From NCBI GenBank assembly GCA_964427915.1, contig CAYRWA010000053.1, forward strand, positions 1,667 to 65,666: 64,000 bases of DNA. Reading direction: 5' to 3'. A program made the translations under genes and the position numbers. The notes under the pieces are model-generated. The model was not told the DNA's origin and did no database searches. It saw only the letters and a list, made by a program, of their open reading frames with translations. The DNA comes from an uncultured Caldisericota bacterium (GTDB lineage: Bacteria > Caldisericota > Caldisericia > UBA6126). Below are positions 18,166 through 64,000 of this stretch, piece by piece (the stretch's first letter is position 1; each line of letters starts with the position of its first letter).

Positions 18166-18240
18166 TGGTGGGCGAAGCAGGATTTGAACCTACGACTTCC
18201 TCGGTGTAAGCGAGGCGTTCTACCACTGAACTATCCGCCC
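18166..18240 (-). tRNA. tRNA-Val (anticodon TAC), CCA encoded
   Basis: Hand-folded cloverleaf with acceptor GGGCGGA/TTCGCCC, D arm GTTC-AGTGGTA-GAAC, anticodon loop CTTACAC, T loop TTCAAAT, discriminator A and an encoded CCA. Confidence 0.85.
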
Positions 18241-18246
18241 TTATTC

Positions 18247-18328
18247 TGCCGAGAGTGGGACTCGAACCCACAAGGATCTCTCCACACGCCCCTCAAGCGT
18301 GCGCGTCTACCAATTTCGCCACCTCGGC
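18247..18328 (-). tRNA. tRNA-Leu (anticodon GAG), long variable arm
   Basis: Hand-folded cloverleaf with acceptor GCCGAGG/TCTCGGC, anticodon stem CACGC/GCGTG, loop TTGAGGG, a long variable arm and T loop TTCGAGT. No CCA is encoded. Confidence 0.85.
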
Positions 18329-37831: not shown

Positions 37832-38362
37832 GTGATAGAAATTGACAGGGAACTATTACAACAAGCTAAAGATGGTGATAGAATGGCACAAGCTGAAGTA
37901 TTTAAGTACTATAAGGATTATATTTTTCGATCTGCCTTTTTCATGCTACGAAATGAAGATGAAGCAGACGATATTGTAGAGAACGTTTTTATCAAGGTTT
38001 TTACTAATTTTTCTTCTTTTGACATGACTAGGTCATTTCATCCATGGTTATCAAGAATTGTTTTGAATGAGACTAGAACCTATATTAAAAAAAATCGACG
38101 AGCTTATACCAACCAAGATTTTGCCCTAGACAACATACCGTCCCGCTCTACAGAAAACCGAGAAAAGGCACAACAAATCCAAAGGTATATGAAAGAGCTC
38201 AATTCAAAGGATCGGGAGATTATATCAATGCGCTATTTTCAAGAGTTAACGATTGAAGAGATTGCTCGAGTTGTTAACATATCTGTTGCAAATGCTAAGG
38301 TGAGAATTCATAGGGCAACAAAAAAATTAAAGCAAATCATTGAAACGAAGGAAGCAAACTAA
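37832..38362 (+). CDS. ECF-type RNA polymerase sigma factor
   Basis: It has a GTG start, region 2 (FHPWLSRIVLNETRTY) and a region 4 HTH (LTIEEIARVVNISVANAKVRIHRA). Confidence 0.85.
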   Translation: MIEIDRELLQQAKDGDRMAQAEVFKYYKDYIFRSAFFMLRNEDEADDIVENVFIKVFTNFSSFDMTRSFHPWLSRIVLNETRTYIKKNRRAYTNQDFALDNIPSRSTENREKAQQIQRYMKELNSKDREIISMRYFQELTIEEIARVVNISVANAKVRIHRATKKLKQIIETKEAN

Positions 38363-39606: not shown

Positions 39607-39621
39607 TGCAAAAAACATATT

Positions 39622-41238
39622 CTACTCAGATGATTGAGAGATATTTCGAGCTTCTTTCATTTTTGATTCCAGTATCTGAATATCCTCTTTGCACATGAGA
39701 GGGTTAGACGCTCTTTGTGATTGAATAACCAACGTATATATGGCTTCTAGTTGTTCCTTCAAATCCTTATATAGATGCGGGAATTTTGTATTCGCATTCA
39801 CATACATATCTTGTTTCGCATCATAGGAATATACATCAATCCATTGAATGGCTCTCCCCGAGGCTTGCATTCGTTCTTTCCCGTCAAAATTCGATGCGGT
39901 ATATCGGAGAATAATTTCTGGATAAGACTTTGGAGGAGTGGATAGAAACTCCATTTGGAAATGCAAATCCCATGAACCACTGATAGAAAACAAAGAATGG
40001 TCAATAGTGCCATCTAGTTCTGTCGGATGAAAATTAAAAATTTTGATAAGATCAGGTTTATGATTTCCCTTTGCTATTGTGTCTGGCGTAACTTGTTCAT
40101 TCTGCTTTGTTGAAACTAATAAATAGGTGTGCTTAGGACCAAGTAGTTTCCCAAGAAAAACCAAATGATCAAACAAGTAATACTCATCATTTTCGTTTGT
40201 TTGACCTCCTAGAAACTCGTTATTATGGAGCACATGAAAGGTGTTAGCTTGATACAATGCTATGTGATTGTTTTCTGCAAACATATACTCGTTTTCATTC
40301 TCCAAAGGAATCCATGAGTACAATCTAAAAAATGGGAAGGAGTATGGTCGATCTACCGTCACAGATTCTTGGATAGTGAAAGGGTGAACCCCTTTTGTAA
40401 TCATGTTAGTTTTTTCACCATCCCACGAATACAGTGTATGATTTTGGCTAAAATACAAGGAATTGGATGTGCTAGACCATGTGAAACCAAAAAGCCAGTC
40501 TTCGTAACTTTCGGAACCAACACTTTTCCATATAGTTTTAATTGAGGATCCCTCACTCCACCAGAAAAGAGTTTTTTGTGGAAGGACTGTTTGGACACTT
40601 TCTAATTCTTGAAAGTAAGGGGTATAAGGGTCGGTATTTGTTGTACCAAAGAGTCTGCCTAGTTTTTTGTCATATTGATTTATGTGAGAATAGTAAGGCC
40701 AGGGATTTTCGCGAGGTAATTTTTGGCCTGTAGCAGTATCTAACACAAAGGGATTTGTGTGCAAGGGAGAAATAACAATTTTGTCTCCTTCTTCTACAAA
40801 AAACAACTGATCTTTTCGGTCTTTTCTAGGTCTGTAGATTGTTAACTCAGAAAGATAATGAACTGAGCCTTTTTGGAGATCTAAAGAGCAAATATGAAAG
40901 GTTGTATTTGTTTTTTGAGAAGAGGGATGTACTTGGTCTTTTCGACGTAAAAAATACAAATGGTGTCGTTGGACGGAATAGTATGGGAAATCATCATTTT
41001 CTTCTGTCAATGCTTCCACATTGCCACTTTGGGGATGGAATACTCGAATTCCATAGCCATCTGGATCAGCAAAGAAGACCATAGAAGGACAAAAGTCCTC
41101 GGGGGAAAAAAAAGATTCTTTAGGATGAAAAAAGGAGCAACCCGTAATAAAAATGGAGCAACATAAAAGTAGAAAAACTCCTGTATAAAAAAAAGATCGA
41201 TCAAAAAAAGAAGCCCAGTATTGAATTTTATTTTGCAT
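39622..41238 (-). CDS. Hypothetical lipoprotein, possible beta-propeller
   Basis: The internal Met at 41238 gives a signal plus lipobox (LLLCCSIFITGC). The ORF-track start at 41307 would overlap the divergent gene. Repetitive beta-rich sequence; no family recognised. Confidence 0.5.
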   Translation of the reverse strand: MQNKIQYWASFFDRSFFYTGVFLLLCCSIFITGCSFFHPKESFFSPEDFCPSMVFFADPDGYGIRVFHPQSGNVEALTEENDDFPYYSVQRHHLYFLRRKDQVHPSSQKTNTTFHICSLDLQKGSVHYLSELTIYRPRKDRKDQLFFVEEGDKIVISPLHTNPFVLDTATGQKLPRENPWPYYSHINQYDKKLGRLFGTTNTDPYTPYFQELESVQTVLPQKTLFWWSEGSSIKTIWKSVGSESYEDWLFGFTWSSTSNSLYFSQNHTLYSWDGEKTNMITKGVHPFTIQESVTVDRPYSFPFFRLYSWIPLENENEYMFAENNHIALYQANTFHVLHNNEFLGGQTNENDEYYLFDHLVFLGKLLGPKHTYLLVSTKQNEQVTPDTIAKGNHKPDLIKIFNFHPTELDGTIDHSLFSISGSWDLHFQMEFLSTPPKSYPEIILRYTASNFDGKERMQASGRAIQWIDVYSYDAKQDMYVNANTKFPHLYKDLKEQLEAIYTLVIQSQRASNPLMCKEDIQILESKMKEARNISQSSE

Positions 41239-41278
41239 AGTTGTATTATACTTAGATAAGAGAAAGGGTAAAAAAAAA

Positions 41279-42916
41279 ATGACAAAGAAATGTATCGTTA
41301 CCACCATTATTTTTGTTCTTTGTGTCTCTTTAGGCTTCCACTCTAGTGTTGCTCAAGATAACGGGGTGGTTCATGAGTATTCAGCTCTTGAATATTCACA
41401 ATGGATTCCTTTTGAAAAGAATGTGGCAATGGAGATATTTACAGCCACATGGTGTGGTTGGTGTTACAAAGCATATGACCTATTTGATGCTTTGCAGGAA
41501 AAATATGGAGACAAAATAGTAACCAATATACGATATCACTGTCAAGACGAAATATCGATGAACACAATCAATGATCGCATCTACTACTACGGAGTTACAG
41601 GATTTCCTACCGTTATTGCCAATGGCACTACGAAGCAAACAGGTGTATCAGAGGATTGGTTTGAAAAGTTTTCTAAAGCTATTGACAATGAGCTTAGTGA
41701 ACCATCCGATTTGGCAATTCATTCCAATATCACGGTTCGAAATCAAATGATTCATTTCGACGTCTTTTTGCATTCTCCTGATCGCCAAATTGAGGGGAAC
41801 TTTATGGGTCTTACCATGGTAAGTGGACTGAACATTAAAGATTCTGTTCATGATTATGTAGCAGAGAGCATATTTCCTTCTTTTGATGGACTCCATATGA
41901 TTCTTCAACCACAAAAAATATACCATTTACGTTTTTCTTTGCCCATCCAAGAAAACATCGAATCGAAGTACTACAGCACTTTGTGCATGTTTCAAAACGA
42001 AGCTACCAAAGAAGTGTATAATTCTCAATTTTGTTCACTATATTCCCATGTTATAACAAGCACAAACCCACTTCCTTTTGAAACCGAAGTAGCCCGAGAT
42101 CACCAGTTTGAGTTACAGTTTCAAGATGGGGTTATTATTAAAACACTACAGTCAGATCAATTTTACTTTCTTGATAAGGATGGAAATGTAGTGGACGCTG
42201 AGTGGTCTTACAATGCAACCTTAAAAACTGTAACCATAACACCTGTATTGCTTTTGGAACCTACTATGAAATATGTGCTTGTTGTAAAAGGAGGACCGGA
42301 ATCCTTCAAATCAGTGAACCAACAACATTTGTATCGAGATTTTTACATCCCATTTCAAACCTCAACTGAGCCTGATCTCGATATGTATTATTCAACAGAT
42401 TTATTACTATTTGACAACGTTTCCGTTATTGATGAACCGTATTCGTATGTGTACGTTGAAGAAACACACGGTAATTCAGTTCGTGTAAGCATTACCCCGG
42501 ATGCTCGGTGGATTCAATGTAGCCCAAATGAAATACAACATTCAGATTTCCAGATTCATGTGCAATTAAATCCTTTGTTTATGGTCAATGGAAAAAATAC
42601 GGGCACAATTGAAATTCGTTCTTTAGCAGGTGTTCACACAATTAAAGTGGAAGCAAATCGTCTGAGTGACAAGTACCCTAGTATACGTTTAGATGCTTAC
42701 CCACTAATAACAAACCTAGATGCAATACAAATATCAGGAAAGACTGATGGATACAAGGTTTATGGGAATGGAAAAGAGGTAAACGTAGAAAACAGTGGGG
42801 ATTTTTCTTTTACTACATCTTTACGCGAAGGTTTAAACTATATACTAATTGAATCAAAAAACATGCGAGGGCATACTTCAACATATCCTGTTACGATCAT
42901 TCGCCTGAAATCTTAA
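41279..42916 (+). CDS. Secreted thioredoxin-fold (WCGWC) surface protein with Ig-like domains
   Basis: It has a signal peptide. The N-terminal domain FTATWCGWCYKAY...GFPTVIANG is paralogous to 53188-54594, and the pattern resembles the Omp28-related/thioredoxin-like family. Beta-sandwich domains follow. Confidence 0.6.
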   Translation: MTKKCIVTTIIFVLCVSLGFHSSVAQDNGVVHEYSALEYSQWIPFEKNVAMEIFTATWCGWCYKAYDLFDALQEKYGDKIVTNIRYHCQDEISMNTINDRIYYYGVTGFPTVIANGTTKQTGVSEDWFEKFSKAIDNELSEPSDLAIHSNITVRNQMIHFDVFLHSPDRQIEGNFMGLTMVSGLNIKDSVHDYVAESIFPSFDGLHMILQPQKIYHLRFSLPIQENIESKYYSTLCMFQNEATKEVYNSQFCSLYSHVITSTNPLPFETEVARDHQFELQFQDGVIIKTLQSDQFYFLDKDGNVVDAEWSYNATLKTVTITPVLLLEPTMKYVLVVKGGPESFKSVNQQHLYRDFYIPFQTSTEPDLDMYYSTDLLLFDNVSVIDEPYSYVYVEETHGNSVRVSITPDARWIQCSPNEIQHSDFQIHVQLNPLFMVNGKNTGTIEIRSLAGVHTIKVEANRLSDKYPSIRLDAYPLITNLDAIQISGKTDGYKVYGNGKEVNVENSGDFSFTTSLREGLNYILIESKNMRGHTSTYPVTIIRLKS

Positions 42917-50124: not shown

Positions 50125-50223
50125 TTGTTAGTGTATTATTTTCTTAAATTCGAAAATTTGTTACAAATTTATATGGGTTATGATTCAGTTTTGATGAATT
50201 GTAATTCAAGGGGGTTTTTTACG

Positions 50224-53166
50224 ATGAAGCATCGACTGAATAAATTTCTTAGTATTATGTTGTCTTTCATTTTGCTTGGCAGTGTTTTTTCTGTTTTTCG
50301 ACCTACAAAAACATATGCTTTAAAGAATTTCTTTATGATTGTACAACCTAGAAAGGTCGCCACAAGGGCAACCTATCGTTTTAATGTAACGATTGAAAAA
50401 CGGCTTAAGGTACACGAAGCCATTACGCTAGTATGGCCTCCTGGAACCATTATCGATCCTCCCATTCCAGAAGAAGAAAAAAAGCGTAAAGAACGACTTA
50501 CACAGATTATTGAATCTATGTCTATTGGTCTTTCTCCTTGTTCTGCTTGCCAGGGACTCCCGGTTATTGAAGAAACTCCAGAAGGGGGAATCTCCTTACG
50601 ATTCAATACTCATATTGAATTGAACCCAGAGATTGTAGGATATAGTGATATTGTTGTTACGGTACCAGATACTTGTGGATTTGTAACTCCACCGACTCCT
50701 GCTAAATACCAATGGAAGTTTTCAACAGGCGCAGAACCTTCTTTTATTTCTTCGGAACCATTTGAAATTGTTGAAAGTGCTATTGGTGTCCCCGAAGGAA
50801 TGCCTGTCGTTGAAGTACGACCTTCTTCTTTCCGAGCCAATGCTTCCTATACCATTGCATTCAATGTTGGGAAAGGCGGATGGTTGCGAGAAGGAGATGG
50901 ACGAATTCGTGTCAAATTTCCTGAAGGCACTCAATTTGCCGACGAAGAGATTAAAGAAAAATTTCTACTTGTTAACGGGAAACCAATCACAAATTCTCCA
51001 CTTGCAGTACGCAATCAGCTTACCTTCATTACTCCCATTGAAATCCCTGATAGTGGACATGTAGAAATTTTTATCGACGAAGGCGCCGGCATTATTAATC
51101 CACCAAAACCGGGCGAATATGTCCTAGAAGTTTCTACAATTCCAGCGGACAAAGATTGGGTCGCTTCTGAACCCTATTTAATTGAAAAAGGGGGAGCTCT
51201 ACTTAAGGTAGTACCTGCCAAAGTAAACAAACCGGCTCGGTATTCCTTCTCCTTTATTTTGGAAGCAGGAAAAACAATTGATGTAGGAAGCAAAATCAGC
51301 GTTCAATTTCCAGAGGGAACTGTCCTCCCATCATCTCTCAATAAATCCAAAATTTTTATCAGCGGAGAACCAATCAGAGACATTTCTGTCAATGGCCTGG
51401 AAGTTGTCATTTCTTCTGCCGTTAAAATAGAATCAGAAAGTGCTGTCGATGTTCTTTTTGCAGCAGATGCTGGAATTGTTAATACGACAGAACCAGGAGA
51501 AATCAAGTTAGGATATAAGCTTGAAAGTGAACCTGACTATTTGATGACCACTCCTGTTGATTTAATCGAATCTCGACTGGATATTTTAGATGTTACTAAT
51601 GAACCCAAAAATGCCTATTCTGTAACTTCTTGGACAATTCAAGGACTTACTGGGGACAATGGTGCTCTCCAAAAAGGTGATTTTATCGCCATTACATTCC
51701 CTGAGAATACCGAGATGCCAGAAGAGGTTGATCCCAACTCTGTTACAATAAACGAAATCCCTTCAGAAAAAGTTACGATTGAGGGAACCACTGCTAGTTT
51801 TTATATAGCACAAGAAGTAAAAGGTGGAACCGAATTTGTTCTACATACTACTCTTGCATCTGGTCTTCGCAATCCCACCGAGGAAAAAGTAGGCTATGTA
51901 CTCAAAGTTACCTCCAACACCGAAGATTTTGTAGCTACTTCTCCAACTTTCTTTACAACTCCAAAGTTACCAGTTTCTACATACGAAATTAAAGGTGGAA
52001 CAGAAGGTGAAAACGGATGGTATTTGGAACCCCCTGTTGTTTCTTTTTCCTGCGATGATCCAACAGCTGTCATAAAACTGTATTGGGACGATAAAGACAA
52101 TCAGATTATTACGTACGACGGGGGAGCAAAACCCCTCGACATAGGCCAGTATGAATCTCGCATTACATATTGGGCAGAATCTATTACTGGTGTGGAACCT
52201 CCAAAATCTTTTATCGTTAAGGTGGACACTGTTTTACCAGAAGTTGTTGTCGAAAAACCAGTAGAAACTAAAACAATTACTACAGAACCAACGATTGAAG
52301 TGGTAGCTCGTACGACATTGATCAAAACAATACGTTTTGGTGTTGACTCTCTTGAACTCGATAGGATTGCCTTTATTAATAATGAAAGAGTACCGGTTGA
52401 TCCTGAAACCGGATACTTCTCGTCTATAATTGACCTAGAACAAGGTGTGAATATTATCGACATCGTTGCAAAAGACGAAGCAGGTCATGAGAAAGCACTC
52501 CAATATGAGGTAGTGTACGATACCGAACCACCTGAAATTACTGTTACCTATCCTTTGGAAGGGGATGTTGTTACAAAGCGTAGATTCTCTGTAACAGGCC
52601 AAACAGATCCCACGGCGCAACTAACAATTAATGGTGAGTTTGTGTACCTAGAACAAAACGGGACTTTTGCATATGAAGTGACACCTAGAAAAATAGGAAA
52701 AATGACATTTGAGTTTGTTGCTACAGATCCCGTCGGTAATGTAACAGAAAAAACGATCCATATAACATTCGGTTACATTATTGAGTTAGTAATCGGTAAA
52801 AACACAGCTACCAAGAACGATGAAACCCAAGAGTTAACGATGGCACCCATTATTCAAAATGGGCGTACATTAGTCCCCTTTGGTTTTATTGGACGAGCAC
52901 TTGGTGCTGATGTAGGATATACTCAACATCCAACAACAAATCTTGTTGAGACTGTATGGCTTGAACTTGATGGCGTGAAGGTGGAACTTACGATCGGTTC
53001 GAACATTGCCAAAGTGAATGGAGAAGATGTAACCATGGATGTTGCTTGCCAGATCATTAGCGGGAATACCATGGTCCCTGTCCGATTTGTTTCCGAAAGC
53101 CTTGGTGCTGATATTGGCTGGGATGGTGACACGGAAACAATTACAATAACCTATCCAAAATTATAA
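50224..53166 (+). CDS. Large secreted surface protein: four tandem ~130-150-aa modules, Ig-like domains, C-terminal copper-amine-oxidase-N 'stalk' repeats (S-layer-like candidate)
   Basis: ATG 50224 follows AAGGGGG and gives a signal peptide (MKHRLNKFLSIMLSFILLGSVFSVF). The module motif recurs four times (TYRFNVT...ITLVWPPGT, SYTIAFNV...IRVKFPEGT, RYSFSFIL...ISVQFPEGT, SWTIQGLT...IAITFPENT). The C-terminus carries NGRTLVPFGFIGRALGADV and NTMVPVRFVSESLGADIGW. Confidence 0.7.
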   Translation: MKHRLNKFLSIMLSFILLGSVFSVFRPTKTYALKNFFMIVQPRKVATRATYRFNVTIEKRLKVHEAITLVWPPGTIIDPPIPEEEKKRKERLTQIIESMSIGLSPCSACQGLPVIEETPEGGISLRFNTHIELNPEIVGYSDIVVTVPDTCGFVTPPTPAKYQWKFSTGAEPSFISSEPFEIVESAIGVPEGMPVVEVRPSSFRANASYTIAFNVGKGGWLREGDGRIRVKFPEGTQFADEEIKEKFLLVNGKPITNSPLAVRNQLTFITPIEIPDSGHVEIFIDEGAGIINPPKPGEYVLEVSTIPADKDWVASEPYLIEKGGALLKVVPAKVNKPARYSFSFILEAGKTIDVGSKISVQFPEGTVLPSSLNKSKIFISGEPIRDISVNGLEVVISSAVKIESESAVDVLFAADAGIVNTTEPGEIKLGYKLESEPDYLMTTPVDLIESRLDILDVTNEPKNAYSVTSWTIQGLTGDNGALQKGDFIAITFPENTEMPEEVDPNSVTINEIPSEKVTIEGTTASFYIAQEVKGGTEFVLHTTLASGLRNPTEEKVGYVLKVTSNTEDFVATSPTFFTTPKLPVSTYEIKGGTEGENGWYLEPPVVSFSCDDPTAVIKLYWDDKDNQIITYDGGAKPLDIGQYESRITYWAESITGVEPPKSFIVKVDTVLPEVVVEKPVETKTITTEPTIEVVARTTLIKTIRFGVDSLELDRIAFINNERVPVDPETGYFSSIIDLEQGVNIIDIVAKDEAGHEKALQYEVVYDTEPPEITVTYPLEGDVVTKRRFSVTGQTDPTAQLTINGEFVYLEQNGTFAYEVTPRKIGKMTFEFVATDPVGNVTEKTIHITFGYIIELVIGKNTATKNDETQELTMAPIIQNGRTLVPFGFIGRALGADVGYTQHPTTNLVETVWLELDGVKVELTIGSNIAKVNGEDVTMDVACQIISGNTMVPVRFVSESLGADIGWDGDTETITITYPKL

Positions 53167-53187: not shown

Positions 53188-54594
53188 ATGAGAAAGAATG
53201 TTAAAAAGCTTTTAACCTTGAGTTTTGCTTGCGTGTTCACTTTTCTGTTTGTATTCGGAAATTATCAAGCACCTTACAAGGTATATGCATCAAATGATAG
53301 CGACTTTACACCGTCTCCTTCACCTGTCATCGTGGAGCGTTTTACAGGTGGATGGTGTGGAGCTTGTCCATATGCTTCTGCCGGAATGCATCATGCAGAA
53401 TTAGTTTTAAACCAAACGGAGAACGTATTTATTCCCCTATCCTTTCACAATCGCGATCCTCTTGCATCTGCCGATACTGAAAAAAGAGCCGATTATTACT
53501 CGATAAATGCGTATCCATCTGTTGTTGTTGGTGGAATTGATTTGATCGTGGGCGTTCCAAATGATGGGCAGTATTTAGACTTTGATCAGTATGTTGCTGC
53601 GATTCTTGAATGCGAGAATCAACAGAGAATTTTGGCCGATATTCAGTTAACAGGTGATTTTGATAAGCATTCTTTCCAGGTCAAAGTAAAAGCAAGAGAA
53701 GATTTCGGAAAACGCAACATTAATATCATTGCAGCCATCTACCAAGACTGGGTAAACGTTGCACAAAAAAACGGGGAGTATATGAACCGTTATGTTGTAC
53801 GTAAAATGCCTTATGGTGTTACCGGAAAGCCTGTTCGTTTAAAAGCAGACCAAATTTACGAAGAAGATAGAAAATTTGTTCTTACCACTAGAGCTGCTGC
53901 GCAAAGTGGTATCGTTGTATTTTTGCAAGACCAGGATACAAAAGAAATTGTAGGATCTGCTTTGCACAAGTTTTCTGATGAAAGACCCGCTCTTTTCTAC
54001 TGGAATGTTCCTCAAATGGGATTGCAACAAAAACACACATCCCTTGATATTATGACCTACAAAGTTAGCAATACCCGACGCTTAAAAAAACTAATTGTTC
54101 AACTTCACCGTGCAGATGATTACTATACAATTGAATCTGCTAGATTACCTGATAGTATCACTGCAAGTGCTTCCGTCGATTTTAATTCAAGAAAAGGCGA
54201 GATTACGGTTCTGTTTGATACTCCTTTTACTGGATCTGGAGACTTATTTGAACTATTGGTAAACTTCAAAAAAGATACGGGTGATGGAGGGGTGCTTTTT
54301 AAAATCACTCAGTTTTCTGCTTCAGATGACCAAGGAGAACTTGTTCCCTTTGAGTTAATTGACCTATCCTTTTTTAGTGGTATTCAAGTAGTGCCCAATT
54401 TGTATGATTTGGATAAAAACGGACACGTCGATGATAGCGATGTAATTCTCTTGGGTAAATCTTTTGGAACTATGCGCGGAGATAAGGGTTTCATGAAAGA
54501 GGCAGATTATAATGATGATAGGAGAATTGACCTTCTTGACATCAACCAATTAATGTTGCATGAGGATTGGCGGATACGAAAATCATTTCCTTAA
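53188..54594 (+). CDS. Secreted thioredoxin-fold (WCGAC) protein with beta-sandwich middle region and C-terminal dockerin-like module
   Basis: It has a signal peptide. FTGGWCGACPYAS...AYPSVVVGG is paralogous to 41279-42916. The C-terminus has two Ca-binding F-hand-like segments, DLDKNGHVDDSD and DYNDDRRIDLLD. Confidence 0.7.
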   Translation: MRKNVKKLLTLSFACVFTFLFVFGNYQAPYKVYASNDSDFTPSPSPVIVERFTGGWCGACPYASAGMHHAELVLNQTENVFIPLSFHNRDPLASADTEKRADYYSINAYPSVVVGGIDLIVGVPNDGQYLDFDQYVAAILECENQQRILADIQLTGDFDKHSFQVKVKAREDFGKRNINIIAAIYQDWVNVAQKNGEYMNRYVVRKMPYGVTGKPVRLKADQIYEEDRKFVLTTRAAAQSGIVVFLQDQDTKEIVGSALHKFSDERPALFYWNVPQMGLQQKHTSLDIMTYKVSNTRRLKKLIVQLHRADDYYTIESARLPDSITASASVDFNSRKGEITVLFDTPFTGSGDLFELLVNFKKDTGDGGVLFKITQFSASDDQGELVPFELIDLSFFSGIQVVPNLYDLDKNGHVDDSDVILLGKSFGTMRGDKGFMKEADYNDDRRIDLLDINQLMLHEDWRIRKSFP

Positions 54595-54947
54595 TCAAAA
54601 AAAAGAACGATTGCAACAGCATATTCTTTTTCATGGGAAATGCTAATTTGTAGTTGATTTGAAATCAAATCATTGCGATTTGAAGAAAAATATGGCCTGC
54701 CCTCGGGAGTGTGGAACACTTCAACATCCCCAAGGGCAGGTTTTTTAATGTAGTCACTAACTGCCTTGATATAGGATTCTTTAGCAGCAAACATTCCTGC
54801 TAGAGATTCCGATGGATTATTTTTTGTATGTGCATAGTCCCATTCTTGTTTTGTTCCTATATGACGAATCCACCAGTTTGAGTGGTATTGGAGACACATT
54901 TTTTGAATACGATCAATCTTTACAATATCAATGCCAGTCGAAATCAT
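54591..54947 (-). CDS. acpS: Holo-[acyl-carrier-protein] synthase
   Basis: It has MISTGIDIVKIDRI and FAAKESYIKA motifs. ATG 54947 follows GGAG by 6 nt and gives ~118 aa. Confidence 0.85.
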   Translation of the reverse strand: MISTGIDIVKIDRIQKMCLQYHSNWWIRHIGTKQEWDYAHTKNNPSESLAGMFAAKESYIKAVSDYIKKPALGDVEVFHTPEGRPYFSSNRNDLISNQLQISISHEKEYAVAIVLFFD

Positions 54948-54967
54948 TTTTTCTCCATAGAAGCTTT

Positions 54968-54996
54968 TTGCTTTTTTGCACATTATATTATATAAT
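54968..54996 (+). promoter_or_regulatory. Candidate promoter upstream of rpoB
   Basis: The -35 TTGCTT (54968-54973), a 17-nt spacer and the -10 TATAAT (54991-54996) lie ~100 nt upstream of the rpoB GTG. Pattern match only, in an AT-rich region. Confidence 0.3.
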
Positions 54997-55097
54997 GATT
55001 GTTTGTTAAATTAAATTTTAATTTTTTTCTTGGTACGGGGATTCTATGGTAATTTGTAGCCTTGTGATTTATTTCATATGGTAATAAGGAGTTTATT

Positions 55098-58000
55098 GTG
55101 TCACATCAATCATTTACGTTGAGAGATTTGAACAAAATAAAACAAGACTTTCAAGCACCTGATCTTCTTGATATGCAAAGGAAATCCTTTGAATGGTTAC
55201 TTGAAAAAGGAATTCAAGAGTTGCTTGATGAGTTTGAAGAAACCGATACGAGCTATGAAAGCGGAAAAGTATTGGTTCGATTTCTAGGATATGAAGTTAC
55301 AAAACCTAAAGCAACCCCTGGAGAATGCAAAGTAAAAGGAAAAACATACAATGGAGAATTAAATCTCTCTATTCGATTAACCAATACAGAGCTTGGGGAA
55401 GAAATTCATCTTCAAGATAAAAGCAAACGAATTGCTGTAGGAGAATTCCCCTATATGACGCCTACTGGTTCTTTTATCATAAACGGCGTTGAGAGAGTTG
55501 TTGTTGGGCAGTTAACACGCTCCCCCGGAGTCTATTTTGAACAAAATATTTCTCCTAAAACTGGAGATCCATTATACAAAGCCACCATCATACCCGACCG
55601 GGGTTCATGGATTGAATTTGAAACCAATGAGAATGGGGTCGTCTTTGTTTATCTTGACAAGAGAAGCAAGAAACTTCCAGCTACAGTTGTTCTCCGTGCT
55701 ATGGGGCTTACAGACGACGAACTAAAAGATGCTTTGAAAGATGACACCGTTGTTGAACTCAGGGTGAATTCCAAAGAGTACTTTGATGCTGTTGGAAAAA
55801 AGTTATATGATGATATATATGACTTAACCACCGGCGAAGATCTCTACAAAAAAGGAACGGTTCTTACCCTCTCTATTCTAGAAGAGATATCCCAAACAAA
55901 CATTAGCCGAATCCACATTTATGATCGAGCTTTATCTCGGTTTGCTATTGCTACATTAGAAGAAGATAGCTCTAACGATGAAGAATCTGCCAAAAAATTG
56001 ATCTTTTTAAAATTAAGACCAGGAGAACGATACACAAAAGAAAATGCAGATATACAATTCAAACAAGTTTTGACGGATCCTCGACGCAATGATTTAGGTG
56101 AAGTGGGTCGATATAAAATTAACAAAAAGCTTGGGTTGAATGTGCAAGACAGAACTATTACAAAAGATGATTTACGTAAGTTAATACAGTATTTCGCAAA
56201 AATTGAACACAATACGGGGCAAACAGACAATCGAGATCATTTGGGAAACAAACGTTTACGATTGGTTGGAGAACTCCTCAAAAATAACATGAGAATTGGC
56301 TTGCATAGAGTCATGAAAAACACCTATGAAAAGATTTCTGTAACGCCTTGGGAAGAAATTCACAAACACACATCCAGCATTATAAACCCAAGACCACTAG
56401 AAGCAGCAATAAAGGAGTTTTTTAGCATGGGACAATTGTCTCAATTTATGGATGAAACCAACCCTATAGCTTCTTTAACTCACAAAAGAAGAATTTCTGC
56501 GCTGGGACCGGGTGGTCTCCACAGAGAAAGAGCAGGGGCTGAAGTTCGAGACGTTCACTATTCTCATTATGGAAGAATATGTCCCATTGAAACACCGGAA
56601 GGTGAAAACGTAGGCCTTATCAATTCTCTCTCTGTGTATTCCAAAGTAGACGACCGAGGCTTTATTGTTGCTACCTATAAGGTTGTTGAAAACTCTAAAG
56701 TAACCGATAAAGTTGTTTCATATACAGCTGACGATGAAGACGATAAATATATTGCTCAATTCGATACTCCTGTGGATGCTGATGGTAATATTATTGTTGA
56801 TACTGTCTTGTGTCGCCATTATGAAGAGTATATCATAGTACCGAAAGAGAAAGTAAACTTGATTGATATTTCTCCCTTGCAGGTTTTTTCTGTTTCAGCT
56901 GGTTTAATTGCCTTTTTGGAACACGATGATGCAAACCGTGCATTAATGGGCTGCAATATGCAGCACCAAGCGGTTCCTCTTATTCACCCAGCCATACCCT
57001 ATTCAGGTACAGGTTTGGAAGAAAAAGCAGCCATTGACTCCGGAGCTTCAGAGTTATCCCCTCACGATGGAATGGTATCCTATGTAGATTCTCGACAAAT
57101 TGCTATCACCTCACCAGACAATGGTTTTGAACAAGTGCTTATAGGAAAATTCAATGTCTCTCTGATTGACAAAGTGATTGCAGAGAATATTCCAAACATT
57201 GCTGAGGTTGGTCAACAAATTGATGGGAACCTACTTCACAAACTGTTTTATAATGGATACTCCACAGTAGCCTACACCGATTCGGATGTATTTGAAACCA
57301 TCGACTTAGCTGAACTGGTCCTGTATGAAAAAAATGAAATGCTGATTGGTCGTAAGCTGGTGAGTGACGTTTACACCAAAACAAACAAAATACTTATTAA
57401 TTCCGGAAGAGAAATTACAAAAGGCTTAATGGACCGTTTGATTGGAGCCAAAATATCTACTGTTGAGGTAGAAGGATGGGCAGGTGGAGTTGAACGAGTG
57501 CCTGTATTCGAAGTGAAGTATGTTCACAAAGACAATATTCCTATTGACAGGATTCTTGTTCATTCTGACCCCTACTGCGAAGCTTTGGAATATGGAAAAC
57601 AAATATCTCCTTCCACATTTACAAAATTGAAAGAACACAATGTTCGCAAAATTACTTTGATTTCTACAGGAGAATTAAAATATGCGCAGTCTTTTGATTT
57701 AAATCCTAAATTGCGGAAGTCGGTTTTACTTGCCAAAGATGTTTATGTTGGTGGAGAAATCCTTGTGAAAAAAGACAGTCAAGTAGACACCAGCTTAATT
57801 ATTACTTTGGTGAAAAACAATGTAGAGGTTGTTGACATTTACAAATCAACTACCATCTCTTTCACGAAGTTCCGAAGAACAAATCAAGATACTGTTGTAA
57901 ACAAATATCCCTTGGTTTCACAAGGGGATATCGTAACGAAAAAGACCCCGATTATTAATGGAGAGGGATGCGATCGAGGAAGATTGGCACTAGGGCAAAA

Positions 58001-59372
58001 TCTATTAACAGCCTATTTGCCTTGGAGAGGGTACAATTACCAAGACGCTATTGTCCTTAGCCAAAGACTTGTCGAAGAAGATACTCTGACGTCTCTTCAT
58101 ATTAAAGAACATAAAGTTCAGGTACGTGATACGAAAGTAGGACCCCAAGAGATAACGAGAGATATTCCCAATGTTCCCGAAGAACAGCTCCGCAATTTGG
58201 ACGATGAGGGGATTATTCGCGTTGGTACAGAAGTAGGTCCCAATGACATATTGGTAGGAAAAATAACCCCCAAAGCTGAAAGTGAATTTACTCCTGAAAT
58301 GAAATTGTGGAGAGCTATGTTTGACAAAAAAGGTCAAGATGTAAAAGATTCATCTTTACGGGTACCCCCAGGGGACAGAGGTACGGTCATTGATGTGCAA
58401 ATTCTATCCAGAGAAGATGAAGAAAATTTACCTATAGGGGTTAACAAAATTGTAAAAGTATATATTGGTGAAAAGAGAAAAATTCAGATTGGCGACAAGC
58501 TGTCTGGTAGACACGGAAACAAAGGCGTCATCTCGAAAATTCTTCCTGTGGAAGATATGCCCTTCTTGGAAGATGGCACCCCCGTGGATATTGTATTAAA
58601 TCCCTTGGGTGTACCTTCTAGAATGAATGTCGGCCAAATACTGGAATGTTTGCTTGGTATTATTGCTCACAACTCTCATTCATATTGTGTGACTACTCCA
58701 TTTGCCGGAATGAATCCAGAGGAACTTTTGAAGTATTTAGAAGAAGATGGTACTTCCAAACATGGCAAAAGAGTTTTGTTTGATGGATATACAGGAGAAC
58801 AATTCGAAAGATCTGTGACAGTTGGATATTCCTATATCATGAAATTAAATCATATGGTAGAAGATAAAATTCACGCTCGGTCAATTGGTCCCTATGCTTT
58901 AATTACTCAACAGCCATTAGGCGGAAAAGCTCAATTTGGAGGACAGCGTTTCGGCGAAATGGAAGTGTGGGCATTAGAAGCGTATGGAGCTGCCTATACA
59001 TTGAATGAAATGCTAACAATTAAATCCGACGATACGGAAGGTCGCGTTAAGGCCTACGAAGCCATATGCAACCGCGATTTGATCCAACCAAGCAGCAATC
59101 CAGAGTCCTTTAATGTTATTATCAATGAGTTAAAAGGGTTGGGCATTAAAATGGAAGTTGTTGAAGATACGACTTACGATGAAGATCAATTGGAATTAAC
59201 CCTTCAGGATTCTATCATTACTCCAGAAACAACAGAAAGGTTAGATTCCGATTTTCAGAGATTTATGAATGAAGATCTTGGATATGACGATGAAATGGGG
59301 AACATAACGGATTCCTCAGAAGATGATAGCGACGATAATTCAATTCTTAATACCAAGGAGGATCATGAATGA
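55098..59372 (+). CDS. rpoB: DNA-directed RNA polymerase subunit beta (1424 aa, with large insertion and acidic C-terminal tail)
   Basis: A GTG start follows AAGGAG. Conserved blocks are present throughout (FIINGVERVVV, RISALGPGGL, ETPEGENVGLI, GRHGNKGVISKI, NPLGVPSRMNVGQ, GGQRFGEMEVWALEAYGA). Confidence 0.95.
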   Translation: MSHQSFTLRDLNKIKQDFQAPDLLDMQRKSFEWLLEKGIQELLDEFEETDTSYESGKVLVRFLGYEVTKPKATPGECKVKGKTYNGELNLSIRLTNTELGEEIHLQDKSKRIAVGEFPYMTPTGSFIINGVERVVVGQLTRSPGVYFEQNISPKTGDPLYKATIIPDRGSWIEFETNENGVVFVYLDKRSKKLPATVVLRAMGLTDDELKDALKDDTVVELRVNSKEYFDAVGKKLYDDIYDLTTGEDLYKKGTVLTLSILEEISQTNISRIHIYDRALSRFAIATLEEDSSNDEESAKKLIFLKLRPGERYTKENADIQFKQVLTDPRRNDLGEVGRYKINKKLGLNVQDRTITKDDLRKLIQYFAKIEHNTGQTDNRDHLGNKRLRLVGELLKNNMRIGLHRVMKNTYEKISVTPWEEIHKHTSSIINPRPLEAAIKEFFSMGQLSQFMDETNPIASLTHKRRISALGPGGLHRERAGAEVRDVHYSHYGRICPIETPEGENVGLINSLSVYSKVDDRGFIVATYKVVENSKVTDKVVSYTADDEDDKYIAQFDTPVDADGNIIVDTVLCRHYEEYIIVPKEKVNLIDISPLQVFSVSAGLIAFLEHDDANRALMGCNMQHQAVPLIHPAIPYSGTGLEEKAAIDSGASELSPHDGMVSYVDSRQIAITSPDNGFEQVLIGKFNVSLIDKVIAENIPNIAEVGQQIDGNLLHKLFYNGYSTVAYTDSDVFETIDLAELVLYEKNEMLIGRKLVSDVYTKTNKILINSGREITKGLMDRLIGAKISTVEVEGWAGGVERVPVFEVKYVHKDNIPIDRILVHSDPYCEALEYGKQISPSTFTKLKEHNVRKITLISTGELKYAQSFDLNPKLRKSVLLAKDVYVGGEILVKKDSQVDTSLIITLVKNNVEVVDIYKSTTISFTKFRRTNQDTVVNKYPLVSQGDIVTKKTPIINGEGCDRGRLALGQNLLTAYLPWRGYNYQDAIVLSQRLVEEDTLTSLHIKEHKVQVRDTKVGPQEITRDIPNVPEEQLRNLDDEGIIRVGTEVGPNDILVGKITPKAESEFTPEMKLWRAMFDKKGQDVKDSSLRVPPGDRGTVIDVQILSREDEENLPIGVNKIVKVYIGEKRKIQIGDKLSGRHGNKGVISKILPVEDMPFLEDGTPVDIVLNPLGVPSRMNVGQILECLLGIIAHNSHSYCVTTPFAGMNPEELLKYLEEDGTSKHGKRVLFDGYTGEQFERSVTVGYSYIMKLNHMVEDKIHARSIGPYALITQQPLGGKAQFGGQRFGEMEVWALEAYGAAYTLNEMLTIKSDDTEGRVKAYEAICNRDLIQPSSNPESFNVIINELKGLGIKMEVVEDTTYDEDQLELTLQDSIITPETTERLDSDFQRFMNEDLGYDDEMGNITDSSEDDSDDNSILNTKEDHE

Positions 59373-61438
59373 AGCTTTATGAAGCAAAAAACATCCGCAA
59401 TGTAGTACTAGCAGGTCATGGAGGTGTAGGTAAAACATCCATTGTTGAAGCTCTTGCTTACAAAACCAAAGTGACTGACCGACTAGGAAAAATACAGGAT
59501 GGTAATACTGTTTCAGATTTTGAACCAGAAGAGACAAAGCGACAAATATCTGTTAGTTTGTCTTTGATTCCTATTGAATATAACGGTTTAAAAATAAATC
59601 TTCTTGATTCTCCAGGATATTTTGACTTTGTTGGTGAAGTAAAATCCGCCATGATTGCAGCTGACGGAGCACTTATTGTAGTGGATGTTGCATCAGGTCC
59701 ACAAGCCGGCACAGAAAAAACTTTTTATTATGCTCAAGGGCATAACTTACCCACTGCTTTTGTTGTCAACAAAATAGACCGTGAAAATGTTAAGATTGTT
59801 GATACCATTCAGGCGATTCAGCAACAATACTCGGAGAAGTGTTTTCCACTTTATTTTCCATATATCAAGGGAGAAGAACTCCAAGGCATGGTGGACGTAG
59901 TATACAAAAAATACAAAACTAAAGATGGAAAAGAAGCGGATATTCCAGAAGAAATTGTACCTACTATTGAAGGTTATTATGATGCTCTACTCGAAGCTGT
60001 TATTGAAGTAGATGATGCTATAGTTGAAAAGTATTTAGGTGGAGAGGAAATCTCTCACAATGAGTTTTTAGATTGTTTAAAAAAATCCATCCACCAGCGC
60101 TCTGTCTTTCCTATTCTGTTTACCGTAGCTACCGATAGCTATGGAACAGAGGAAATGCTGGATTTTATCTCCACGTATATGCCCAGCCCAGAGGATAAGG
60201 GAAGCATTGTAGCCACAAAAGATGACAAAACTGAAACAGACTTGCCAGTAGATAAAAATGCACCTCTTGCTGCATTGGTTTTTAAAACGATGACGGATCC
60301 TTATGTTGGCAGAATATCTTTAGTTAAAGTCTTTTCTGGAAACCTTGATTCCAATTCTAAGATTTACAACACAGCAGAAGAAAAAAGTGATAAAATTGGG
60401 CAAATTGCCACCTTTATCGGAAAAAAAGAAGTACCCATCGATCATATACCAGCAGGTGATATTGGCGCTATCACAAAACTAACTTTAACAAAAACAGGAC
60501 ATACTCTTTCTCAGGCTGATCATGTAATCACTATTCCCTGGATTGAACTACCCATTCCAAATGCTCGTATGTCTATTAAAGCAGAAAAAAAATCTGACGA
60601 AGATAAACTAGGCGCTGTTCTTCCTAAAATGCAAGAAGACGATGTCAGCATTCTGATTGAACGAGATCATGATACCGGTGAAACTATTATACGAGGAATG
60701 GGAGATAATCATTTACAAGTTACGATGGAAAAAGCAAAGAGAAAATTTGGAGTCTCCTTCCTTCTAGAGCAACCCAAAATAGCTTACAAAGAAACTATTC
60801 GAAAATCCATAAAAGTGGAGGGAAAACATAAAAAACAATCAGGTGGTCATGGTCAGTTTGGACATTGTTGGTTAGAAGTTCAACCAGCTAAACGTGGAGA
60901 ATATTTCGAGTTTGAGAACAAAATTTTTGGAGGAGCCATCCCAAAAACATATGTACCAGCTGTCGAAAAGGGTGTTCTTGAGGCTATGCAACACGGGCTT
61001 CTAGCTGGATATCCTGTAGTGGATTTAAAAGTAACTGTTTATGACGGATCATATCACCCCGTAGACTCTTCTGAACAAGCCTTTAAAATGGCAGGATCTA
61101 TAGCATTAAAAAAGGCTCTTGAACAGGGGGAGTCAATATTGTTAGAACCAATCATGAGTTTGAAAGTACATGTCCCCGAAGAATCTATGGGATCTGTCAT
61201 CGATGATTTGAATACAAGACGTGGACGCATTATGAGCATGAAAGTTGGCCAACAAAAAGGATGGCAAATCATTGAAGCACAAGCTCCCCTTGGTGAATTA
61301 TCGAACTATATTACCACCATAAAATCAGTATCCGGTGCCAGAGGATTTTATGCAATGGAGTTTTCTCACTATGAAGAAGCACCACCAAAAACGGTTCAAA
61401 AAGTTATAGAAGAAGCCAAAGAAGAAGAAGCTTCTTAG
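59369..61438 (+). CDS. Elongation factor G paralog (EF-G2-like translational GTPase)
   Basis: It has G1 AGHGGVGKTS, G3 DSPGYFDF (Tyr in place of the canonical His), G4 NKID, and the domain III-V pattern including KKQSGGHGQFGH. It resembles the Thermus EF-G-2 N-terminus (VGHAGSGKTT, DAPGYGDF) as I recall it. Its ATG overlaps the rpoB stop. Confidence 0.85.
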   Translation: MKLYEAKNIRNVVLAGHGGVGKTSIVEALAYKTKVTDRLGKIQDGNTVSDFEPEETKRQISVSLSLIPIEYNGLKINLLDSPGYFDFVGEVKSAMIAADGALIVVDVASGPQAGTEKTFYYAQGHNLPTAFVVNKIDRENVKIVDTIQAIQQQYSEKCFPLYFPYIKGEELQGMVDVVYKKYKTKDGKEADIPEEIVPTIEGYYDALLEAVIEVDDAIVEKYLGGEEISHNEFLDCLKKSIHQRSVFPILFTVATDSYGTEEMLDFISTYMPSPEDKGSIVATKDDKTETDLPVDKNAPLAALVFKTMTDPYVGRISLVKVFSGNLDSNSKIYNTAEEKSDKIGQIATFIGKKEVPIDHIPAGDIGAITKLTLTKTGHTLSQADHVITIPWIELPIPNARMSIKAEKKSDEDKLGAVLPKMQEDDVSILIERDHDTGETIIRGMGDNHLQVTMEKAKRKFGVSFLLEQPKIAYKETIRKSIKVEGKHKKQSGGHGQFGHCWLEVQPAKRGEYFEFENKIFGGAIPKTYVPAVEKGVLEAMQHGLLAGYPVVDLKVTVYDGSYHPVDSSEQAFKMAGSIALKKALEQGESILLEPIMSLKVHVPEESMGSVIDDLNTRRGRIMSMKVGQQKGWQIIEAQAPLGELSNYITTIKSVSGARGFYAMEFSHYEEAPPKTVQKVIEEAKEEEAS

Positions 61439-61474
61439 GAATGTATACAAGTATATGCAAAGGGGGTTCTCGTT

Positions 61475-64000
61475 TTGAATAACAAGCAAACACGAGATAA
61501 CTTACAAAAAAAACAGTCAGTTACGGATTATGAAGCTATATCGATCCACTTAGCTAGTGCAGATGAAATCTTAAGTTGGAGCTTTGGAGAAGTTAGAAAG
61601 TCCGAAACCATTAGTTATCGGAACTTTAAGCCAGAACCAGATGGATTGTTTTGCGAAAAAATATTTGGACCCTTCAAAGACTACGAGTGCCGATGTGGAA
61701 AATACAAAGGAAAACGATATGAAGGAGTTATTTGTGATCGATGTGGAGTGCAAGTTACACGTTCTACTGTTCGAAGAGAACGCATGGGCCACATATCCTT
61801 AGCAGCTCCTATTATTCATATTTGGTATTTAAAGACTGTTCCTTTTGTATCTTTGCTTTTGAATATGACATCCAAAGCACTTCAGGAAGTTGTCTATTTT
61901 GTGAAATATATTGTTGTGGATCCAGGCGATACCGATTTTAAAAAATGTCAGGTCATTCGCGATGAAGAGTACCATAAAGCCATTGACGAAGGACATAAAT
62001 TTAAAGCTGGTAAAGGTGCTGAATCTGTTAAGATTCTCTTGGATGAAATTGACTTGGAATCCCTAAAAAAAGAATTGCAAAATCAAATGGATACAACCTC
62101 ACAACAGAAGAAAACTAAGTTAGTTAAACGACTGAATGCTGTTGGAGCTTTTTTATCCACGGATCGAAAACCGAGTGATATGATTATGTCTGTTGTTCCC
62201 ATTATTCCACCTGACCTGCGACCCCTTCTTCAATTGGATGGTGGACGTTTTGCTACATCCGACTTAAATACGTTGTATCAACGAGTTATTAATCGTAACA
62301 GTAGATTGTCAAAGCTTTTAGACGTTAGTGCTCCGGACATCATGATTCAAAACGAAAAGCGAATGTTACAAGAAGCAGTAGATGCTTTAATGGATAATAG
62401 CAAGCGTAGTAGACCTGTATTGGGAACAGGAAATCGACCATTACGCTCCCTTTCGGACATCTTAAAGGGTAAAGAAGGACGATTCCGTCAAAATTTATTG
62501 GGTAAACGAGTTGATTTTTCCGGTCGTTCTGTCATTGTTGTCAATCCAGAGCTGAGACTAAATGAATGTGGCCTTCCCAAAGAGATGGTTTTGGAGCTTT
62601 TTAAACCATTTGTCATGGAGCGATTGACGAAAAAAGGTTTAGCTCAAAGTTTACGATCAGCTAAGTTAAAAATTGAAAAATTTGATCCTGTCGTTTGGGG
62701 TGTTTTAGGTGAGGTTATTAAAGGGCATCCTGTCTTATTAAACCGAGCCCCTACTCTTCACAGATTGGGCGTTGAAGGCTTTAGAGTGACCATTTGTGAA
62801 GGTAAAGCCATTCAAATTCCCCCCTTAGTATGTCCTCCTTTTAATGCCGACTTTGACGGTGACCAGATGGCAGTGCATGTACCACTATCCATCCCCGCTA
62901 TTGTTGAAACTGAAACTCTCATGATGTCAAGCAGAAACTTAATGTCTCCTGCTAGCGGGTTACCAAATATGGCTCCGATTCATGACGTTGTATTGGGATC
63001 TTATTATTTGACACTAGATTTAGAAGATTCACGCTACAAGAAGCATGATAAAGATTATGTATTTCACTCTCTAGAAGAAGTGCAAATTGCTCTTGATTAT
63101 AAAAAAGTCGATATTCATGACCGGGTTCGAGTTTATGTTGATGGAGAAACACTACAAACTACGGTTGGGAGAGTTGTGTTTAACATTCATTTACGCAAAC
63201 TTCTTCTTGTCCTTGGGCATGATCCGTCTGAACTGGCTTTTATCAATGAAGCGTTAACGTCCAAAAAGCTGAAAATGATTATTACAAGTTTTTATCATCA
63301 ATTTGGAGAAGAAGTTACGGTTGAGTTTCTAGAAAAAATAAAACAACTAGGATTCATTTATTCTACCATTACAGGCATTACTGTAGGAATAGATGACATG
63401 GTAGAGTCACCTAATCTACAAGACCGGATCCATGAAGCAGAAACAAAAGAAATCCAACTGAAAAAAGCCTATGAAAATGGTTTAATATCAGATCAAGAAA
63501 GACATAAAAAAATTATTGACAATTGGAACCAATGTACATCTGACATTCGAAATGGTGCTTTTAAGAATTTCTTCCGAACCAACCCTATTCATATGATGGC
63601 TTCCTCTGGAGCCCGAGGAAACCCATCACAGGTATCACAAATGGTTGGTATTCGTGGGTTGATGCAGGATCCTACAGGGAAGACCATCGAATACCCAATT
63701 AAGAACAACCTTCGTTCAGGATTAACAGTAATTGAGTATTTCATTTCTACCCACGGTGCTCGAAAAGGGCAAGCTGATACTGCCTTAAAAACCTCCGATT
63801 CTGGATATTTAACCCGTAGACTTGTAGACGTAGCTCATTCGGTAATTATTCGTGAGAATGATTGCGAACATACGACAAAAATTGCTAAAGTTGCTGCTGG
63901 AAAGACCATTCGCAATATTACTCCTCAAATTGTTGGACTTTATGCTGATCAAGATATTATCAAACCAAAGACGGAAAAAGTATTTTTGAAAAAAGGCGAA
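61475..64000 (+). CDS. rpoC: DNA-directed RNA polymerase subunit beta-prime, 5' 842 codons (continues beyond window)
   Basis: It is missing from the ORF track because no stop occurs before the window end. My own translation from TTG 61475 (AGGGGG lies 8 nt upstream) gives ...LFCEKIFGPFKDYECRCGKYKGKRYEGVICDRCGVQV...RMGHISLAAPIIHIWY..., and later NADFDGDQMAVH near 62840-62880. Confidence 0.93.
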   Translation, partial: MNNKQTRDNLQKKQSVTDYEAISIHLASADEILSWSFGEVRKSETISYRNFKPEPDGLFCEKIFGPFKDYECRCGKYKGKRYEGVICDRCGVQVTRSTVRRERMGHISLAAPIIHIWYLKTVPFVSLLLNMTSKALQEVVYFVKYIVVDPGDTDFKKCQVIRDEEYHKAIDEGHKFKAGKGAESVKILLDEIDLESLKKELQNQMDTTSQQKKTKLVKRLNAVGAFLSTDRKPSDMIMSVVPIIPPDLRPLLQLDGGRFATSDLNTLYQRVINRNSRLSKLLDVSAPDIMIQNEKRMLQEAVDALMDNSKRSRPVLGTGNRPLRSLSDILKGKEGRFRQNLLGKRVDFSGRSVIVVNPELRLNECGLPKEMVLELFKPFVMERLTKKGLAQSLRSAKLKIEKFDPVVWGVLGEVIKGHPVLLNRAPTLHRLGVEGFRVTICEGKAIQIPPLVCPPFNADFDGDQMAVHVPLSIPAIVETETLMMSSRNLMSPASGLPNMAPIHDVVLGSYYLTLDLEDSRYKKHDKDYVFHSLEEVQIALDYKKVDIHDRVRVYVDGETLQTTVGRVVFNIHLRKLLLVLGHDPSELAFINEALTSKKLKMIITSFYHQFGEEVTVEFLEKIKQLGFIYSTITGITVGIDDMVESPNLQDRIHEAETKEIQLKKAYENGLISDQERHKKIIDNWNQCTSDIRNGAFKNFFRTNPIHMMASSGARGNPSQVSQMVGIRGLMQDPTGKTIEYPIKNNLRSGLTVIEYFISTHGARKGQADTALKTSDSGYLTRRLVDVAHSVIIRENDCEHTTKIAKVAAGKTIRNITPQIVGLYADQDIIKPKTEKVFLKKGE

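Follow-up and report, generated by a model that had tools for sequence, protein, structure and literature searches.

The DNA analysed here, a window of 64,000 nucleotides (nt) from contig CAYRWA010000053.1 of an uncultured Caldisericota bacterium, contains towards its end the genes for the beta and beta' subunits of RNA polymerase, rpoB and rpoC, and between them a gene for a paralog of elongation factor G (EF-G); all coordinates below are positions of this window, the full stretch that was analysed, and L-numbers designate the retrieved comparison loci. The rpoB gene (1424 amino acids, aa) occupies 55098..59372 on the plus strand, with a GTG start, a TGA stop at 59370-59372 and all the Rpb2 Pfam domains. 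As the initial annotation had pointed out, this stop overlaps the ATG (59369-59371) of the paralog in a 4-nt ATGA motif (59369..59372, plus strand), and a strong Shine-Dalgarno (SD) sequence, AAGGAGGA, lies within the last rpoB codons (59355..59362, plus strand), 6 nt 5' of that ATG. The paralog, a translational GTPase of 689 aa that belongs to the EFG II subfamily (EF-G2-type), extends on the same strand over 59369..61438 and ends in a TAG at 61436-61438. It is followed by a 36-nt spacer (61439..61474, plus strand) with an SD sequence AAGGGGG at 61460-61466, after which rpoC begins with a TTG at 61475, also as first described, and runs on the plus strand to the end of the window (61475..64000). 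Its first 841 codons lie inside the window, and the complete gene, as found in L001 and L002, encodes 1285 aa with Pfam Rpb1 domains.

The upstream edge of the rpoB operon is marked by a divergent acpS-like gene for a 4'-phosphopantetheinyl transferase (54591..54983, minus strand; Pfam ACPS, E = 1.1e-12), which likewise adjoins rpoB in L001-L004, L083-L086 and L088. Neither rplJ nor rplL is present upstream of rpoB, nor does rplKAJL as a whole precede it, which bears out the neighbourhood originally reported. The divergent intergenic region of 114 nt (54984..55097), with TAAGGAG ahead of the rpoB GTG, presumably holds the promoter of the rpoB operon; in a consensus scan of this region no plus-strand promoter was identified with confidence, and a promoter-like site for the minus-strand acpS lies at 55009-54982. 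In the two junctions of the paralog, the same scan found neither terminator-like nor promoter-like sites, in agreement with the claim that terminator-like hairpins are missing there; across the region, the counts of such sites are not above those of shuffled sequence. No leader or attenuator RNA was found near rpoB in an Rfam scan, and the GC content is even across the region (0.37-0.40). All that the initial annotation had stated about the sequence itself thus proved correct. The paralog therefore shows the sequence features of a member of the rpoBC operon, namely the same strand, tight junctions and no intervening terminator or promoter, and the three genes probably share one transcript. Short gaps and overlaps of this kind are typical of operons and of translational coupling, and they suggest that the paralog is coupled to rpoB.

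A Pfam search of the paralog recovered all five EF-G domains at full length (GTP_EFTU, EF-G_D2, EFG_III, EFG_IV and EFG_C). For the assignment to a subfamily we followed the EFG II criteria of Margus, Remm and Tenson (2011; PMC3150367), which comprise the type I diagnostic residues A19G, T28L, T64S, I316T, A360G and G379K/R (Thermus thermophilus EF-G numbering), a relaxed version of the G2 motif RGITI in which Ser replaces the Mg-coordinating Thr, and a co-occurring EFG I gene, usually located in the str operon. Five of the six diagnostic residues are exact in the paralog (G16, S61, T307, G351 and K370), and the sixth, I25 for Leu, is a conservative change. Its G2 motif is RQISV, where S61 falls at the position of T. 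thermophilus T64, and a Ser occupies the G2 motif in all nine Caldisericia orthologs. The G3 motif, given by the initial annotation as DxPGY, is DSPGY, whose Tyr84 is aligned to the catalytic His87 of T. thermophilus in switch II; this His is also missing in the 78 other family members examined (78/78), which have Y, F, D or L instead. On the other hand, the GKT, DxPG and NKxD motifs are kept, as are the domain IV loops GGHGQ and SYHPVDSSE, the ones that reach the decoding centre.

Family models placed the protein outside the canonical group. The paralog scored 582.5 with TIGR00484, the model for canonical EF-G (cutoff 659.4), 599.4 with NF009377, the NCBIfam model for EF-G2 (cutoff 890), and 533.3 with NF058620, the model for Bacteroides EF-G2 (cutoff 1000); the last two cutoffs are likewise not reached by the proteins of L088, L090, L009 and L005, and these two models cover other EFG II sub-groups. 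NF009381 was dropped as a discriminating family, the paralog and the canonical fusA product both passing it. An AlphaFold2 (AF2) model built on a 62-sequence alignment (predicted local distance difference test, pLDDT, 90.5; predicted template modelling score, pTM, 0.84) was compared with the PDB by Foldseek, and matched ribosome-bound EF-G, T. thermophilus EF-G-2, Mycobacterium smegmatis EF-G2 and Bacteroides thetaiotaomicron EF-G2 with template modelling (TM) scores of 0.83-0.92; as all EF-G structures match about equally, the fold search was set aside as a separator of EF-G1 from EF-G2. In a neighbour-joining (NJ) tree of 93 sequences, a distance method applied to a set with few EFG I sequences and no spdEFG, the EFG I group (six Caldisericia fusA products plus T. 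thermophilus EF-G) was split from all others in 100/100 bootstraps. The fold alone being non-discriminating, it is the Ser in G2, the diagnostic residues, the co-occurrence with an EFG I gene and the separation in the NJ tree that make the paralog a member of the EFG II subfamily, as its initial description as EF-G2-type had it.

The gene order is not peculiar to this contig. An exact-protein look-up returned the identical 689-aa protein on two contigs from different Joint Genome Institute (JGI) samples (L001 and L002), where the order is acpS (minus strand), rpoB, EF-G-like gene, rpoC, rpsL, rpsG, fusA (697 aa) and tuf. The named database relatives of the paralog carry Caldisericia labels, and the order rpoB-EFG'-rpoC (EFG' being the embedded paralog) is present in L001-L004 and L083-L093 and on at least 11 independently assembled contigs, one of them of 2.23 Mb (L093). 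In a first clade, the contexts L003/L004, L083, L084/L085, L086/L087 and L088/L089 hold paralogs at 88, 68, 58, 55 and 50% identity, respectively, and rpsL-rpsG-fusA-tuf follows rpoC wherever the contig reaches that far. A search with RpoC uncovered a further tier of greater depth, whose RpoC sequences are 55-57% identical and carry the label Caldisericales or Caldisericia; here too, rpoB, a 694-aa EF-G-like gene and rpoC follow each other (L090/L091, L092 and L093). This second clade has neither acpS upstream nor the str operon downstream of rpoBC, so the insert stayed put as both flanks changed. The nine embedded paralogs examined, which share 44-49% identity between the two clades, are monophyletic in 99/100 NJ bootstraps and have Y (clade 1) or F (clade 2) at the position of the catalytic His.

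The junctions are also maintained. Overlaps between rpoB and the paralog measure 4, 14, 23 and 4 nt in clade 1 orthologs, and in clade 2 the two genes are separated by 12, 21 and 18 nt, with 9-15 nt between paralog and rpoC. A GGAGG-like SD sequence stands 6-9 nt 5' of the paralog ATG in six of seven relatives (L003, L083, L084, L086, L088 and L090), the seventh, L092, having a weaker motif, GAGGAAGGA, about 10 nt 5' of the start; paralog-rpoC spacers span 9-44 nt across orthologs, with an SD sequence before rpoC in 6/6 junctions examined. Between the window genome and L003, dN/dS amounts to 0.055 for the paralog, 0.027 for rpoB, 0.015 for rpoC and 0.031 for fusA, values obtained with dS near saturation, and the paralog is under purifying selection. 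In one metagenome-assembled genome (MAG), AnMBR.bin291 (L004:5746-12066), frameshifts break both rpoB and the paralog into several frames; because rpoB is essential, these are probably assembly indel errors and not pseudogenes. The rpoB-EFG'-rpoC order is, in consequence, a conserved lineage trait throughout the sampled Caldisericia and not a one-off, which makes the arrangement more surely real, yet leaves the window unexceptional within its clade. The initial annotation would have counted it against its own proposal if the arrangement were common and already annotated in the lineage. The order did prove to be conserved in the sampled Caldisericia, where the gene is named only 'elongation factor G', a result that strengthens its reality instead of refuting it.

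That annotation had also allowed for a chimeric junction and for the paralog being the organism's only, canonical EF-G. These readings, along with those of a tandem duplicate recently derived from fusA and of a protein for tetracycline ribosomal protection, could find a foothold in the plain label 'elongation factor G' given to the gene by the NCBI and JGI pipelines and in its passing the broad NF009381 model. They are nonetheless extremely improbable. Misassembly is ruled out by the identical locus in a second sample and by the order common to the at least 11 independent assemblies, the 2.23-Mb contig included, and the GC content is uniform across the region. The only-EF-G reading fails on the missed TIGR00484 cutoff and on the separate fusA of the str operon, whose product on L001/L002 scores 999.6 with that model (cutoff 659.4) and has the G3 motif DTPGH of canonical EF-G. 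A recent duplication of this nearby fusA is discarded by the 36% identity between the paralog and the fusA product of its own genome and by the grouping of the paralog with EFG II. Tet-type ribosomal protection (304.5 with tet_protect, NF012153, cutoff 775), LepA, BipA and RF3 all fall far below their model cutoffs. Recent horizontal insertion was rejected as well, in view of the missing compositional signal and of the deep vertical inheritance in the tree. Artefact and mis-identification are thus refuted.

Outside the embedded clade, and among the matches listed, neither rpoB nor rpoC lies within 10 kb of any of the 76 other EFG II loci in GTDB representative genomes, whose EFG II genes share 40-47% identity with the window protein and belong to Chloroflexota, Bacillota, Nitrospirota, Aminicenantes, Desulfobacterota and further groups. 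This is equally so for the 80 metagenome loci with relatives at 38-47% identity, bringing the combined control to 0/156 EFG II loci near rpoB or rpoC among the matches listed, one of these loci labelled Caldisericota. Neighbour clustering found no gene family in more than 8 of 78 loci, so that EFG II genes of other phyla have lineage-specific contexts only. In two outgroups, L174 (Armatimonadota) and L175, whose RpoC falls just beyond the Caldisericia tiers, rpoC comes immediately after rpoB and is succeeded by rpsL-rpsG-fusA. As a separate observation, in 6/78 non-Caldisericia loci (L005-L008, L011 and L025-type) a rimP-nusA-infB cluster is oriented divergently from the EFG II gene, about 1-7 kb upstream of it and on the opposite strand, another transcription/translation neighbourhood that is lineage-restricted.

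With these data, we think it reasonably probable that the paralog works as an EF-G2 that binds the ribosome but is impaired in hydrolysis, and that it is expressed together with RNA polymerase and inherited between rpoB and rpoC. An EFG II gene would have been placed between the two in an ancestor of the sampled Caldisericia, within an otherwise canonical rpoB-rpoC-rpsL-rpsG-fusA-tuf supercluster, and would have been inherited vertically at the same place ever since. The paralog would be expressed from the rpoB transcript and translated from its own strong SD sequence, possibly also by termination-reinitiation at the ATGA overlap, in which case its production would follow that of the RNA polymerase core subunits, unlike in Bacteroides, where EF-G2 is induced by starvation. 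Because Tyr (Phe in the sister clade) replaces the His that activates GTP hydrolysis, GTPase activity is most likely impaired, with binding to the ribosome retained. By analogy with what is reported for the EF-G2 of Bacteroides and mycobacteria, the protein most likely binds GTP and, as EF-G does, the A-site/GTPase centre of the ribosome, but hydrolyses GTP poorly; in translation it would then serve either as a translocase that is slow or independent of hydrolysis, or as a ribosome-state factor.

Several points weigh against this proposal. The impaired GTPase is deduced from a single residue, and T. thermophilus EF-G-2, according to a review passage in a preprint, retains ribosome-dependent GTPase and translocation activity (bioRxiv 10.64898/2026.05.25.727771), so that inactivity is not general among EFG II proteins. 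Co-transcription is likewise read from gene arrangement, and internal promoters inside rpoB or the paralog are possible. One MAG labelled Caldisericota (A05DMB09, L009) carries a stand-alone EFG II gene away from rpoBC (L009:10001-12091, with DTPGL in G3), flanked by an SLH/VWA gene on one side and an iron-repressor/FeoB pair on the other; in the NJ tree it branches as sister of the embedded clade, with weak support (57% bootstrap), and may mark the state before insertion. Finally, the conserved position could be a frozen accident, as a gene sitting between essential co-transcribed genes is hard to remove.

This last explanation is a serious alternative, which we regard as possible if somewhat unlikely. 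It supposes that a single rearrangement put an EFG II gene between rpoB and rpoC, that its excision would disturb essential genes, and that the position has no functional meaning, the protein doing the same job as EFG II elsewhere. In this line, compared with 78 other EFG II proteins the paralog has no clade-specific indel and only nine clade-specific residues, EFG II genes of other phyla have no conserved neighbours (the limit of 8 of 78 loci given above), and genes for RNA polymerase and translation factors were already clustered in the ancestral rpoBC-str supercluster. However, the order outlasts a very deep divergence in which both flanks were rearranged, the junctions are tight and equipped with SD sequences in most lineages, and the gene is under purifying selection, all of which fits selection on co-expression, short of proof.

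A bolder interpretation, present in the initial annotation as a role in transcription-translation coupling or in RNA polymerase/ribosome rescue, would place the paralog at the interface of transcription and translation, made together with beta and beta'. It might act on the lead ribosome coupled to RNA polymerase, rescue collisions between RNA polymerase and ribosome, or contact RpoB, for example through its acidic tail. Indeed, no EFG II gene examined had a conserved operonic context other than the interior of rpoBC, and EF-G occurs in solved transcription-translation coupling complexes, such as 8y5r among the fold matches. RpoB itself has some peculiarities: it is 1424 aa long, the RpoB of two outgroups measuring 1079-1158 aa, and has both an insertion specific to the lineage (about 240 aa; aa 672-919, window 57111-57854) and, at the C-terminus, an acidic extension (window 59148-59369), 26 of the last 75 aa being D/E. 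These add little. The tail, found in all Caldisericia RpoB examined, is variable and poorly conserved in sequence. Moreover, the paralog has no extra domain or insertion, and genes of rpoBC operons elsewhere, such as rplJL, need not bind RNA polymerase. With no extra domain, no clade-specific indel and nine clade-specific residues, a direct RNA polymerase-linked role stays speculation, and we hold it to be quite unlikely; the same low probability attaches to the idea that a hydrolysis-impaired EF-G2 made together with beta and beta' acts on the trailing ribosome, or with RNA polymerase, as a lineage-specific coupling or rescue factor. The coupling or rescue role thus went unsupported, and nothing was found in favour of the stoichiometric linkage to RNA polymerase that had been proposed along with it.

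The adjacency of rpoB and rpoC is among the most conserved gene orders in bacteria, and EFG II (EF-G2) proteins are widespread and poorly understood. That Caldisericia keep a 2.1-kb translation-factor paralog between both genes through deep divergence is therefore an unusual exception. The two best-studied EF-G2 proteins are stress- or starvation-specific, whereas the operon context in Caldisericia predicts the opposite, a housekeeping expression tied to RNA polymerase. The group offers a testable case for two questions: may a hydrolysis-impaired EF-G be a constitutive part of translation in low-energy anaerobes, and is there a link to transcription? If the partnership with RNA polymerase were true, we would be facing a coupling or rescue factor specific to this lineage, in a phylum that grows slowly and under energy limitation; were the position a frozen accident, the case would be no more than an oddity of gene order. 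As a genomic marker, the arrangement might also help to recognise the clade.

Other features of the window deserve a brief mention. Large secreted-type proteins are encoded just upstream of rpoB (50125-53166 and 53188-54594, plus strand), as they are in L090, L092 and L093; they carry Glucodextran_B and Cu_amine_oxidN1 domains, with lengths of about 1000 aa in the window and of about 2700 aa in clade 2. For an RNA polymerase operon without the usual rplKAJL, such a conserved neighbour is odd. Far from the operon, three clustered tRNA genes (Asp-GTC, Val-TAC and Leu-GAG; 18084-18328, minus strand) are the only Rfam matches of the window. An open reading frame (ORF) of the GreA/GreB family (22159-23058, plus strand; 299 aa) has its Gre domains confined to residues 143-295, which could be due to an N-terminal extension of about 140 aa or to a mis-set start. 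A gene for a sigma factor of the extracytoplasmic function (ECF) type (37832-38362) opens a segment (37832-41307) that continues with a 414-aa ORF on the same strand and a convergent 561-aa ORF, both without a Pfam match.

Full-text literature searches found no publication on an EF-G paralog between rpoB and rpoC, in keeping with the statement of the initial annotation that no such arrangement had been described, and the EFG II paper (PMC3150367) makes no mention of rpoB or rpoC. The protein family is already known; what is new, and apparently undescribed, is its fixed place inside rpoBC across a deep lineage. The closest counterparts are the EFG II proteins of the Clostridia/Chloroflexi type defined in that paper, with which the window protein has in common the five domains, a G2 motif RxxS[IV] with Ser, and the residues G16, S61, T307, G351 and K370; it is 44-47% identical to members from Chloroflexota and Bacillota. 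EFG II members elsewhere always occur with an EFG I gene, usually placed in the str operon, as here, but have no conserved gene context (the 0/156 loci near rpoB or rpoC, among the matches listed), whereas the Caldisericia gene is fixed inside rpoBC.

M. smegmatis EF-G2 (PDB 9K0Z/9K10) resembles the window protein in its fold (TM 0.89) and in having a Tyr for the catalytic His. A preprint describes it as a stress factor without ribosome-dependent GTPase and recycling activity, and reports that the change H88Y in M. smegmatis EF-G1 leaves GTPase activity nearly gone (bioRxiv 10.64898/2026.05.25.727771). It differs, however, in belonging to an actinobacterial sub-group with the G2 motif qqRSV, and in being non-essential, stress-associated and encoded at its own locus. 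B. thetaiotaomicron EF-G2 (fusA2; PDB 8DMF/7UVP), with a TM of 0.88 to the window protein, is reported to sustain GTP-independent translation and to be induced by starvation (PMC10294740, PMC6989115). According to the same reports, fusA2 has its own promoter, activated by Cur/BT4338, and its induction upon carbon starvation is anti-correlated with fusA, in contrast with a Caldisericia gene inside a housekeeping operon. T. thermophilus EF-G-2 (PDB 1WDT), the founding structural member of EFG II, shows a TM of 0.83 and a sequence match of 447 bits, the window protein being nearer in sequence to T. thermophilus EF-G (523 bits); it differs in its reported GTPase and translocation activity and in lying outside the rpoBC operon.

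As for the locus as a whole, the reference is the canonical rif-str supercluster, rplKAJL-rpoB-rpoC-[L7Ae]-rpsL-rpsG-fusA-tuf-S10, in which translation-factor genes stand next to RNA polymerase genes as an ancestral trait. Clade 1 of the Caldisericia keeps the order rpoB...rpoC-rpsL-rpsG-fusA-tuf-rpsJ of this supercluster, from which both clades depart in that a 2.1-kb gene splits rpoB from rpoC and rplKAJL does not stand upstream; in clade 2 the str operon is detached as well.

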